A stretch of DNA of 39,014 nucleotides from Corallococcus sp. AB030 (lineage in GTDB: Bacteria; Myxococcota; Myxococcia; Myxococcales; Myxococcaceae). The notes under the pieces were generated by a model. The model worked only from the letters and a program-made list of their open reading frames with translations. It did not search any database and was not told the DNA's origin. Where the stretch lies: NCBI RefSeq assembly GCF_003668965.1, contig NZ_RAWQ01000078.1:1-39014 (forward strand), read 5' to 3'. Shown piece by piece: positions 20,580-23,500 of the stretch. The position numbers and the translations under genes are program-made. The stretch's first letter is position 1; every line of letters begins with the position of its first letter.

Positions 20580-23500
20580 CTACCGGCGCGCCTTGCGAGC
20601 CGGCTTGCCCCGAGTGGTCTTCTTCGCCGCGGCCTTCTTCGCGGCGGTCTTCTTCCCCGCCGCCTTCTTCGCCGAAGCCTTCTTCGCAGGAGCCTTCTTC
20701 ACCGCCGCCTTCTTCGCGGCCGTCTTCTTGCCCGCTGCCTTCTTCGAGGAAGCCTTCTTCGCAGGGGCCTTCTTCGCGGCGGACTTCTTGCTCGCCGCCT
20801 TCTTCGCGGAGGCCTTCTTCGCAGGGGCCTTCTTCACCGCCGCCTTCTTCGCGGAGGCCTTCTTCGCAGGGGCCTTCTTCACCGCCGCCTTCTTCGCAGG
20901 GGCCTTCTTCGTCGGAGCCTTCTTCACCGGCTTCGCCGAACCCTCCGGAGCCTCGCGGGCGTCGCCGCCCTCCTTGGCCCGGTCGAACTCGCGCATCGCG
21001 TCGTCCACGAGGCCCATGCTCATGTACGCGACGCCCAGGTCGTGGTGGTCCGCCGGGGACAGCCCTTCCTTGGTGCCCTCGCGCAGCTTGTTGAGGGCCT
21101 CCTCCACCACCGGATCCGCGGCCTGGGGCGCCTGCGAAGCCTCTTCGGCTTCAATCTCGCCCTTCAGCTCCTGGCCCAGGTTCACCGCATCGTCCTTCGG
21201 TGCCTGCGGCTCGGTGGCCACCTTCACCTGGGCGCTCTCGGGCGCGGGGGACTCGGACGCTTCAGGGGCTTCGGACTCGGTGCTGCCCGGCAACGGCGAC
21301 GGCGTCTCGGACATGGGGGGCTCCGGGGCGATGCGCTGGAGGTGATCCTGCAGCTTGACCGTGCGCTCCTGGAGCTCCGCCACCCGGGCCTTGTCCTTCT
21401 CCACCACGTCCGGCGGAGCACGGGCCACGAAGTTCGGGTTGTCCAGCTTGCGCTGCAAACCGGTGAGTTCCTGCTCGGAGCGGACGATCTCCTTCTTCAG
21501 GCGGTCGCGCTCCGCGTCCAGGTCCACCAGGCCCGCCAGGGGCACGTAGATTTCCAGGTTGCCGCTCACGAACGCCGCCGCCTGCGGAGGCTTGGCGCCC
21601 GGGGGGCCCACCACCACCTCGGACAGGCCCGCGAGCGGCATCAGGTACGCGCGCCAACGCTCCAACAGCTCGCGCGTCGTCGCGTCCGGGCTCTGCACCA
21701 CCGCCTTCACCTTGGCGGACGGCGGCAGGTTGCTCTCGCCGCGCAGCGTGCGCAGGCCCTCGATGGCCGCGATGACCGGCGCCATCTCGCCTTCCGCGGC
21801 CGCGTCCACCCACGCCGTCTCCGGCGCCGGGTACGCCGCGATGCAGATGCTCTCCGTGGGCCGGGACATCGGCAGCTTCTGCCAGATCTCCTCGGTGATG
21901 AACGGCATGAACGGGTGCATCAGCCGCAGGATGCGGTCCAGGCACGTCACCAGCACCGCGCGCGTGGTGTCCTTGGCCTCCGCGTCGTCGCCGTACAGCG
22001 AGCCCTTCGCCAGCTCGATGTACCAGTCGCAGAACTCCGCCCACAGGAACTGGTACAGCGTGGACGCGGCCTCCGCGAAGCCGAACGCCTCCAGCGACGC
22101 GCGCGTCTCCTCGGTGGCCTTCTGCAGGCGGGAGAGGATCCACCGGTCCGCCAGCGTCAGCTTGCGGCCCTCCAGCGGCGTCTTGTCCAGGCTGAAGTCG
22201 CCCATGTTCATCAGGGCGAAGCGGCTGGCGTTCCACAGCTTGTTGCAGAACGCCTTGTAGCCACCCAGGCGGTCCATCGACAGCTTGATGTCACGGCCCT
22301 GCTGCGTGAGCGACGCCAGCGTGAAGCGCAGCGCGTCCGCGCCGTGCGCGGGCATGCCCTGCGGGAAGCGGTTGCGCAAGGACGGCTGCAGCGACTCCGC
22401 CTTCGCGCCGAGGATGACGTCCAGGGGATCGATGACGTTCCCCTTCGTCTTGGACATCTTCTCGCCCTTCTCGTCGCGCACCATCGCGTGCAGGTACACG
22501 GTGCGGAAGGGCACATCGTTCATGAAGTGCAGGCCCATCATCATCATCCGGGCGACCCAGAAGAAGATGATGTCGTGGCCCGTCTCCATCACGGACGTCG
22601 GGTAGAAGGTCTGGAGGTCCGCCGTCTGCTTCGGCCAGCCCAGCGTGGAGAACGGCCACAGCGCGGACGAGAACCAGGTGTCCAGCACGTCCGGATCCTG
22701 CGTCAGCTCCTTGCCGCCGCACTTCGGGCAGGACTCCGGCGCCGTGCGAGACACGATGACGTCCGCCGTGTCCTTGGAGCGCTCTTCCGCCGGGGTGCAC
22801 GCCGCGCAGTACCACGCGGGGATCTGGTGGCCCCACCACAGCTGGCGGCTCACGCACCAGTCGTGGATGTTGTTCATCCAGTGGAAGTACGTGTTCGTCC
22901 ACGACTCGGGGACGAACTTCGTGCGGCCCTCCTCCACGGCCTGGATGGCCGGCTTCGCCAGCGGTTCAATCTTGATGAACCACTGCGGCGACAGGCGCGG
23001 CTCCACCACCGTGGTGCAGCGCTGGCAGGTGCCCACGTTCAGCTTGTGCGGCTCCTCCTTCTCCAGCAGGCCCAGCTCCGTCAGGTCCGCCAGCACCTGC
23101 TTGCGCGCCTCCCGGCTCTCCAGGCCCGCGTACTTGCCGGTGTCCTTCGTCATCCGCGCCGCTTCGTCCAGGATGGACAGCATCGGCAGCTTGTGGCGCA
23201 GGCCCGTCTGGTAGTCGTTGAAGTCGTGCGCGGGCGTGACCTTCACCACGCCGGTGCCGAACTCCATGTTCACCAGCTCGCCGTCCGCGATGACCGGAAT
23301 CTCACGGTCGGTGAGCGGCAGCGCCACGCTCTTGCCGATGAGGTCCTGGTAGCGCGGATCCTCCGGGTGCACGGCGACGGCCGTGTCGCCCAGCAGCGTC
23401 TCCGGGCGCGTCGTCGCCACGGTGAGGAAGCGCTCCGTGCCCTTCACCGGGTAGCGGATGTGCCAGAGCGAGCCGTTCTTCTCCTCGTGCTCCACTTCCA

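Follow-up and report, generated by a model that had tools for sequence, protein, structure and literature searches.

Why does a bacterial valyl-tRNA synthetase (ValRS) continue for 249 residues beyond its tRNA-binding arm, through an acidic linker and a small helical module into a long run of lysine and alanine? This question is raised by valS on the minus strand of a 39,014-nucleotide stretch of DNA from Corallococcus sp. AB030 (contig NZ_RAWQ01000078.1, positions 1 to 39,014 of the forward strand), the whole of which is hereafter called the window. A sequence-only reading of the window had described the gene product as ValRS fused to a histone-H1-like lysine/alanine repeat tail. The analyses below led us to conclude that valS here encodes an ordinary ValRS to which a clade-specific accessory polypeptide is fused as the last 249 codons, and that the same polypeptide is fused, split or absent in the slot between valS and nadC across the loci compared.

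A charged extension on an ordinary synthetase

The gene and its product are divided as follows (residue numbers are those of ValRS; TPR, tetratricopeptide repeat).

20580..24074, minus strand: valS, long-form valine--tRNA ligase, 1164 codons and a stop
21330..24074, minus strand: canonical ValRS body, residues 1–915, with catalytic, editing and anticodon-binding domains and the coiled-coil arm
Residues 20–599: tRNA-synt_1 (Pfam, 502 bits)
Residues 643–792: Anticodon_1 (Pfam, 144 bits)
21330..21524, minus strand: C-terminal coiled-coil tRNA-binding arm, residues 851–915 (Pfam Val_tRNA-synt_C, 68 bits)
21180..21329, minus strand: acidic linker rich in proline, serine and glutamate, residues 916–965, delimited by composition and predicted disorder
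20967..21179, minus strand: conserved helical module, residues 966–1036, comprising a VDLGxELKxEL motif, a helix and a single TPR hairpin
20964..21065, minus strand: the TPR hairpin, residues 1004–1037, called from consensus residues, profile match and superposition
20583..20936, minus strand: lysine/alanine tract, residues 1047–1164, made of 21 XXXKK pentapeptides and a terminal 12 residues
20619..20929: DNA tandem repeat (Tandem Repeats Finder, score 370), with a period of 15 in 20.7 copies or a period of 45 in 6.9 copies
Residues 1051–1159: HC2, histone H1-like (Pfam, 44.4 bits against a cutoff of 40)

The valS open reading frame (ORF) is continuous, with neither an internal stop nor a frameshift, and its product shares about 99.7% identity with the ValRS of Corallococcus exiguus (WP_169820992.1). 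The class Ia motifs are visible in the translation as LHIGHA (HIGH) and KMSKT (KMSKS), and the protein scores 1137 bits with TIGR00422 valS against a cutoff of 612. AlphaFold predicts the body mostly with a predicted local distance difference test score (pLDDT) of 70–98, the helices of the arm lying at residues 852–878, 880–885, and 888–914. In ValRS proteins from outside the Myxococcaceae group the alignment ends at the equivalent of about residue 915, and the extension is therefore assigned 249 residues (916–1164), beginning where the Pfam "Valyl tRNA synthetase tRNA binding arm" ends. An extension beyond the coiled coil had been recognized in the sequence-only reading, and it is present; its length had been put at about 280 residues, and its upper coordinate (21420) is already within the coiled coil, by about 30 codons.

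The long form is already covered by public annotation. The protein passes NCBIfam NF011492/PRK14900, the model for long-form ValRS, with 1820.8 bits against a cutoff of 1783, and residues 1–1109 align with positions 3–1030 of the 1044 in the model, which carries the match about 115 positions into the tail and through the TPR module. Yet the tail is apparently undescribed in the literature: the name of NF011492 covers only "valine--tRNA ligase", the model describes neither the tail nor its parts nor its free form, and a literature search found no paper describing the ValRS tail of Myxococcus or Corallococcus.

The first segment of the tail is the acidic, proline-rich linker that had been noticed earlier. 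Residues 916–947 contain nine prolines, seven serines and seven glutamates with no lysine or arginine, and the pLDDT falls below 50 over residues 920–966. The module that follows is predicted by AlphaFold to form helices at residues 966–979, 988–1000, 1007–1019, and 1023–1035. The last two correspond to what had been called a TPR-like helix pair, and three lines of evidence indicate that this pair is, as judged from sequence and model, a genuine single TPR. First, the consensus residues L7, G8, Y11, A20, F24, and A27 are all present within residues 1004–1037. Second, a profile of the module matches consensus TPR proteins among the Protein Data Bank (PDB) sequences (E = 6e-10, summed over repeats), and that search returned generic TPR proteins only. 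Third, the hairpin superposes on TPR units (CTPR and the repeats of MamA) with a deviation of 0.4–0.5 Å over 30 residues, its block-mean pLDDT over residues 1007–1035 being 81–84 in the full-length model and 84–91 when the module is modelled alone. The likeness is confined to the hairpin. The helices preceding it fit no TPR model, Foldseek found no PDB structure that matches the whole module at E ≤ 0.001, only the 30-residue hairpin superposing, and the tail contains one TPR where a tandem array typically has three or more.

The lysine/alanine tract occupies most of the remainder. About 20 repeats had been estimated, in agreement with the 21 XXXKK pentapeptides counted here, and the tract has a pI of 12, a pLDDT of about 30, and predicted disorder throughout. 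Its lysine content is difficult to attribute to base composition. Residues 1039–1164 hold 45 lysines, all encoded by AAG, against five arginines, while the ValRS body holds 50 lysines and 61 arginines; since lysine exceeds arginine so strongly in a genome of about 68–70% GC, compositional drift driven by GC content is disfavoured. The G+C content at third codon positions (GC3) reaches 0.97 in the body and 0.89–0.91 over the tail segments, which indicates that the tail is read in the coding frame. The reported fusion is thus borne out by a single uninterrupted ORF of 1164 residues whose tail has the GC3 of a coding frame. AlphaFold predicts no beta structure within residues 916–1164, and gives four short helices and disorder for the tail. 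Scanning the protein against Pfam gave no hit to tRNA_bind, nor any to Linker_histone at E ≤ 1. No further lysine/alanine-rich tract was found in any frame of the window.

Long ValRS proteins of 1078–1332 residues occur in Corallococcus, Myxococcus, Pyxidicoccus, Stigmatella, Hyalangium, Melittangium, Archangium, and Aggregicoccus and in many metagenome-assembled genomes (MAGs). The fused form is present in dozens of independent assemblies, several of them on contigs of 9–10 Mb, and together with the continuous ORF this rules out an assembly error or a frameshift as the cause of the joining. The sequence-only reading had named a frameshift or stop, and orthologues lacking the tail, as what would speak against it; for this genome neither does, and the long form extends across Myxococcaceae. 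The distribution was taken from an exhaustive profile search covering 1.84 billion representative proteins, whose hits to the full module were confined to ValRS fragments, C-terminal pieces, and the free ORFs. A word-indexed search with a 131-residue tail fragment returned fragments only and no full-length ValRS, and was not used for this purpose.

The segments of the tail differ in conservation. Across 21 diverse sequences the module has 26 invariant columns. Rough Nei–Gojobori dN/dS ratios against relatives in Corallococcus and Myxococcus, which are approximate because the repeat alignments are uncertain, are as follows.

Module: 0.12–0.36
Lysine/alanine tract: 0.22–0.39
ValRS body: 0.25–0.36
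Acidic linker: 0.48–0.88 (0.35–0.88 overall), the least constrained segment

By these estimates the module and the tract are about as constrained as the enzyme body in the closer comparisons. The repeat had been expected to vary in length, and it does: members of the Corallococcus 90% cluster have ValRS proteins of 1150, 1152, 1154, 1159, 1164, and 1165 residues. Their indels are in frame and mostly multiples of five residues; they cluster in the N-terminal half of the tract and leave its C-terminal half nearly invariant. Strains of M. xanthus have ValRS proteins of 1274–1302 residues. Larger changes are seen in more distant relatives. The group of Archangium, Cystobacter, and Melittangium keeps the basic tail and lacks both the TPR module and Met921, and in the tail-less relatives L083, L085, and L088 valS is followed directly by nadC.

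A free-standing form of the tail

Downstream, the slot occupied by the tail is bounded by nadC.

19692..20576, minus strand: nadC, quinolinate phosphoribosyltransferase (TIGR00078, 303 bits)
21312..21326, minus strand: junction of body and tail, CCGGAG-CCCCCC-ATG (P918 E919 ... M921), with an in-frame GGAG resembling a Shine–Dalgarno (SD) sequence and an ATG six nucleotides later

The order valS-(tail)-nadC is kept in all Myxococcaceae loci examined, and valS and nadC are also adjacent in Acidobacteriota. The nadC start lies 3–9 nucleotides past the valS stop, and the nadC SD sequence (TAGGAGG) overlaps the valS stop codon. In the window the valS stop is embedded in the ribosome-binding site of nadC at 20570..20582 on the minus strand (CGG TAG GAG GTG GAA GTG). 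The tail ends in "...RR*" almost universally, both when fused and when free, and this ending may partly reflect the nucleotide constraint imposed by that binding site.

In a clade of short ValRS proteins (L013, L014, L087, P0116, and P0130) valS ends right after "...SRI", and the downstream ORFs were examined in L013, L014, and L087. In all three, the valS stop (TGA) is followed by an SD sequence GGAGG and an ATG that opens a separate ORF. Its length is 140 residues in L013 and 134 in L014; in L087 it runs for at least 104 residues and is cut by the end of the contig. These ORFs start with MSE(E)RTPEEM, continue through a stretch rich in glycine and methionine, and finish in a very basic lysine/arginine/alanine tract ending in RR; their GC3 is 0.84–0.90, their mutual identity is 47–71%, and nadC comes next. 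In L014 the frame of the tail ORF differs from that of valS. The same peptide is fused in frame in L016, which is sister to the L013-type clade, where the junction reads I K P E G T M S E K T P E E M.

Splitting also affects the TPR-containing form. On one 24.7-kb contig a ValRS of 925 residues (P0109) is followed after a gap of 31 nucleotides by an ORF of 172 residues containing the TPR and the lysine/alanine tract (P0178), and then by nadC; the label given to the free ORF by JGI is "valyl-tRNA synthetase". In L089 the valS stop and the tail start overlap as ATGA, three nucleotides past a GGAGG, and the tail ORF of 156 residues, again with TPR and lysine/alanine tract, is kept open in a different reading frame. 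Split cases were accepted where the valS ORF of 914–925 residues was intact, or, for L089 only, where the 3' end of valS was intact. The free tails P0013 and P0009 were rejected, as valS is broken into three to four ORFs at L081 and L082, which points to indel errors. Gene calls from long-read MAG contigs such as these can mimic gene fission. A tail gene may also occur away from valS: on the 1459-bp contig that carries P0156 (JGI 3300050821), an unconfirmed candidate, an ORF of 151 residues with TPR and lysine/alanine tract lies behind an ORF of 135 residues and a gene on the opposite strand, not behind a full valS.

The detached tail ORFs are apparently translationally coupled to valS. The occurrence of one polypeptide as fused, split or absent in the valS-nadC slot ties it to ValRS in a Rosetta-stone relationship. 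In an unsupported neighbour-joining tree, tail-bearing forms occupy basal as well as crown positions, and the clades with no tail or a split one branch from within them.

The free forms also bear on whether the extension is functional at all. It could be a non-functional read-through, a low-complexity expansion, or an assembly artefact joining valS to downstream sequence, as the variable length of the repeat and the absence of the tail from some lineages might suggest. High-GC genomes also tolerate long spurious ORFs, such as the 1811-residue plus-strand ORF at 19773..25208, an antisense shadow ORF that failed the GC3/GC2 coding filter. Against this explanation stand the recurrence of the fusion in independent assemblies including the 9–10 Mb contigs, the coding-type GC3, the body-like constraint, the invariant columns of the module, and the excess of lysine over arginine; moreover, the detached ORF stays open with its own SD sequence and ATG even in another frame (L014 and L089). 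We consider this explanation extremely improbable.

The fused junction in the window resembles the starts of the free genes. It reads ATC GCC CCG GAG CCC CCC ATG TCC GAG (I A P E P P M921 S E), Met921 is present in 70 of 92 TPR-bearing homologues, several of the exceptions having valine, and CCG GAG is kept six bases before the ATG wherever Met921 is kept (the window, L001–L006, L008, L010, L016, and L018). In L017 the junction is GAGGAG-N6-ATG. The GGAG-N6-ATG arrangement may have been left over from a once separate gene downstream, or it may serve as an internal start of translation. In the latter case valS would be a two-product gene, yielding the fusion and a free H1-like/TPR protein from Met921 with a predicted length of 244 residues, a mass of 25 kDa and a pI of 10.1. 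We regard two products as possible but rather doubtful. The dipeptide PE also ends the tail-less ValRS proteins P0109, P0111, and P0114, which weakens the reading of CCGGAG as a selected SD sequence, and further CCG is a common codon and the sequences compared are phylogenetically related.

Proposed function of the tail and its alternatives

We propose that the tail is a polyanion-binding appendage, most plausibly for tRNA or other RNA, with a TPR docking element, and that it serves as a fused accessory of ValRS; on the present analysis we give this proposal an even chance of being correct. The lysine/alanine tract would be a non-specific polyanion binder hanging from the end of the coiled-coil arm, and would most plausibly capture or retain tRNA, or another RNA, for ValRS, because it is attached at the tRNA-binding arm and travels with ValRS. 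In T. thermophilus, structures of ValRS with tRNAVal (Fukai et al. 2000, 2003) reportedly show the coiled coil in contact with the elbow of the tRNA. A fused tail would work in cis and a detached one in trans, for which the lysine-rich domains appended to eukaryotic synthetases and the cofactors Arc1p and Trbp111 provide precedents. The TPR module would then be a likely protein–protein docking element, either for the ValRS body, as would be needed in the split state, or for another partner, and the acidic linker may shield the basic tract in the absence of ligand.

Several observations weigh against this proposal. From composition it is not possible to tell whether the ligand is tRNA, DNA, polyphosphate, or an acidic membrane or protein. 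Loss of the entire tail in L083, L085, and L088 indicates that it is dispensable for aminoacylation, and the retention of the basic tail in the Archangium, Cystobacter, and Melittangium group, without the module and Met921, indicates that the module is not essential to the role of the basic tract. The two TPR-containing split cases are each a single metagenome contig. Finally, the fusion of coupled neighbours can be neutral, so that adjacency and fusion are no more than suggestive of a shared function.

The sequence-only reading had named non-specific binding of tRNA or of the nucleoid, which is reasonable as far as composition goes, and had likened the tail to histone H1, AlgP, and Hc1. The likeness holds for composition. 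If it extended to function, the H1-like tract would hold ValRS, or the free tail, on the nucleoid, or the protein would moonlight as a nucleoid-associated protein connected with ValRS through gene position only. Several findings would accord with this. The Pfam HC2 match exceeds its gathering score, and the next best families are the NCBIfam models for the H1-like proteins of Burkholderia and for Hc2. Tails rich in lysine, alanine and proline bind DNA in AlgP and PhaF (PMC9239181), and an H1-like C-terminal domain confers DNA binding on the CarD of Anaeromyxobacter and can be exchanged for the HMGA-like acidic-plus-basic domain of M. xanthus CarD (PMC2919716). Furthermore, the tail can stand alone as a small basic protein. 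However, the NCBIfam matches, which run over low-complexity repeats, reach only 48.6–52.5 bits for hist_H1_lk_Burk and 27.5–30.8 for histone_lik_HC2 (27–52 bits overall), far under the respective cutoffs of 80 and 135, so that the resemblance to H1 and Hc2 is compositional. There is neither a linker-histone globular domain nor an AT-hook, the full module was found in the profile search only fused to or beside valS, and never elsewhere in a genome or joined to a DNA-transaction protein, and the point of attachment is the tRNA-binding arm. A nucleoid tether is in our view unlikely.

The distribution of charge raises another alternative. The linker and module (residues 916–1038) have a net charge of -19 and the tract (residues 1047–1164) one of +49, so that the tail is a block polyampholyte, an architecture prone to complex coacervation, and Myxococcaceae have a developmental programme induced by starvation. 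The tract might bind polyphosphate granules or drive coacervation with RNA or polyphosphate, thereby sequestering or concentrating ValRS during starvation or development. A comparable protein, AlgP (net charge +55, KPAA repeats), is found on polyphosphate granules, whose spacing depends on the AlgP repeat domain (PMC9239181). The argument is one of charge analogy, however, and the XXXKK repeat is unlike KPAA; an association with polyphosphate or condensates thus appears quite unlikely.

A further alternative places the function in the module. The best match of the module outside ValRS is the NCBIfam model for SgmX (NF052243, positions 834–924 of 1065, E = 4.8e-10, 38.4 bits), and the module profile in turn matches the SgmX-like proteins P0216, P0242, P0278, P0191, and P0201 over its positions of about 6–82. 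Other multi-TPR proteins match the TPR part of the profile. Judging from the comparison with P0242, positions 834–924 of the SgmX model comprise an acidic FFDLxxELxxEL motif, a helix, and probably the first of three C-terminal TPRs. SgmX and the ValRS tail share the acidic DLxxELxxEL motif, the helix, a TPR of the type H[YH]DLG[VI]AY.EMGL.D.A..EF, and the reciprocal matches of hidden Markov models, and differ in that SgmX has 14 TPRs against one in the ValRS tail and in that the similarity of the flank is marginal. The match is local only: membership of the SgmX family rests on the whole protein, with at least 1800 bits and 14 TPRs in three blocks, which the ValRS tail does not attain. A deeper homology beyond the TPR was considered and rejected, since a profile of the flank gave 12–16 bits with two SgmX-like proteins against at most 6 bits in 720 shuffles, which is suggestive but too weak a signal for a common origin of the whole module.

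The gene directly upstream of valS makes this match worth weighing.

24128..25390, minus strand: romR orthologue, 420 residues, with a receiver domain, a proline-rich region and a glutamate-rich tail

In M. xanthus, romR (MXAN4461) is flanked by MXAN4460, which Leonardy et al. 2007 (PMC2034494) call "similar to Val-tRNA synthetases"; no other mention was found in the literature search. If the TPR module were the functional core, it could dock ValRS or the free tail to a partner, for example the MglA/RomR/SgmX polarity machinery. The last three TPRs of SgmX (TPR12–14) bind MglA-GTP (PMC7668184; PMC9811614), and valS lies directly downstream of romR in the conserved order CheW-romR-valS-nadC. 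Against this, the 38 bits compare with a family cutoff of 1800 and most of the signal is that of a generic TPR; the tail has one TPR and not the three-repeat unit that forms a functional domain (PMC7668184); the adjacency of romR and valS is also seen in tail-less lineages and hence is not specific to the tail; and the Archangium group has lost the module and kept the tail. The adjacency of romR is genomic context only, and we judge a partner-docking core of this kind to be very unlikely. The more particular proposal that the tail is a polarity-linked adaptor and not simply a nucleic-acid-binding tail, by which ValRS or the free 25-kDa tail is docked to the MglA/RomR/SgmX machinery at the pole, is highly improbable. 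If it were true, the adaptor would link the polarity of Myxococcaceae cells to their local capacity for translation or supply of tRNA.

Whichever ligand is bound, the tail deserves attention. Domains appended to synthetases are usually regarded as a eukaryotic elaboration, and here a whole bacterial family has a large, conserved, and highly charged one on a synthetase that is essential. Its natural occurrence as fused, split or absent provides a built-in evolutionary experiment on the role of a lysine-rich synthetase tail, and such natural states could separate tRNA capture in cis or in trans, tethering to nucleoid or polyphosphate, and docking to a partner. M. xanthus, in which the orthologue is MXAN_4460, is genetically tractable. 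There is also a consequence for annotation, in that the name "valyl-tRNA synthetase" is being given to small free tail ORFs and false free tails arise from fragmented long-read MAGs.

Surroundings of valS and comparison with known systems

The other features recognized in the window are listed below.

11219..12937, minus strand: LysM protein with a VgrG3-like C-terminal part (peptidoglycan hydrolase type)
16712..18988, minus strand: Major Vault Protein homologue of 758 residues (Vault, Vault_2, Vault_3, and Vault_4; MVP shoulder, E = 9e-45)
25508..26416, minus strand: CheW-domain protein, a context matching the M. xanthus romR locus
26373..27761, plus strand: receiver-GGDEF protein, likewise matching the M. 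xanthus romR locus
29943..31586, minus strand: GroEL
33613..36075, minus strand: DUF3857/transglutaminase protein
37203..37301, plus strand: selenocysteine tRNA gene (ARAGORN, anticodon TCA; Rfam tRNA-Sec, 70.5 bits)

The product of 16712..18988 is a bacterial homologue of the shell protein of the eukaryotic vault. The proline-rich region of romR, especially at 24250..25000, contains PGAP/PPGA-type repeats with 82–85% GC and a strong excess of A over T on the plus strand, and is by far the most GC-rich part of the profiled interval 19000..25000. The gap of 53 nucleotides between romR and valS contains at 24083..24104 a perfect GC stem of 9 bp with a loop of four nucleotides (GCCGGCCCC-CGAC-GGGGCCGGC on the plus strand) and no U-run. 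This stem could be a terminator or attenuator lacking a U-tail, or an element of RNA stability. No obvious SD sequence was seen ahead of the valS ATG. A consensus scan of 19400..25700 found no minus-strand promoter or terminator, and hence offers no evidence against co-transcription of romR, valS, and nadC. Plus-strand "terminators" called by the scan inside the repeat were dismissed as artefacts of the repeat sequence.

Among known systems, the tails of AlgP and PhaF, of Hc1 and Hc2, and of the CarD of Anaeromyxobacter resemble that of ValRS in their lysine, alanine and proline, their short tandem repeats, their predicted disorder, and their high positive charge. The repeat tails of the AlgP, PhaF, and Hc type share a variable repeat length as well, and CarD shares the acidic-plus-basic layout and is also a myxobacterial protein. 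In AlgP and PhaF, however, the repeat is the tetrapeptide KPAA and not XXXKK with a 15-nucleotide period, and the N-terminal partner here is ValRS. The H1-like tails sit on proteins associated with DNA, granules or RNA polymerase, whereas the tail described here sits on an enzyme of translation.

The lysine-rich extensions of eukaryotic synthetases are closer in setting. In yeast ValRS and GlnRS, and in synthetases of higher eukaryotes, such extensions are auxiliary, non-specific tRNA binders acting in cis (PMC3306390; PMC6213541). As in yeast ValRS and GlnRS and human LysRS, the Corallococcus tail is a lysine-rich, disordered extension on a complete synthetase and is absent from most bacterial orthologues. 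We found no sequence homology between the two. The eukaryotic domains are N-terminal, while the tail is bacterial and C-terminal. It is also more repetitive (21 XXXKK units) and more charged, follows an acidic linker and a TPR hairpin, and has a documented form as a free-standing gene, its binding of tRNA being putative.

The coexistence of free and fused states has its own counterparts. In Arc1p, a domain for protein binding is joined to a basic middle domain with non-specific affinity for tRNA, and domains of the Trbp111 type exist as free proteins as well as in fusion with synthetases (PMC11286949). Like the ValRS tail in its fused and split states, Arc1p, Trbp111, and AIMP1 are accessory polypeptides that may be free or fused. 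They differ in having an OB fold, which the ValRS tail lacks, and the docking domain of Arc1p is GST-like, while the candidate in the ValRS tail is a single TPR with a presumed docking function and partner. Set beside these systems, the extension encoded by the Corallococcus valS belongs to the known theme of basic domains appended to synthetases, and varies it in being bacterial, C-terminal and equipped with a TPR.

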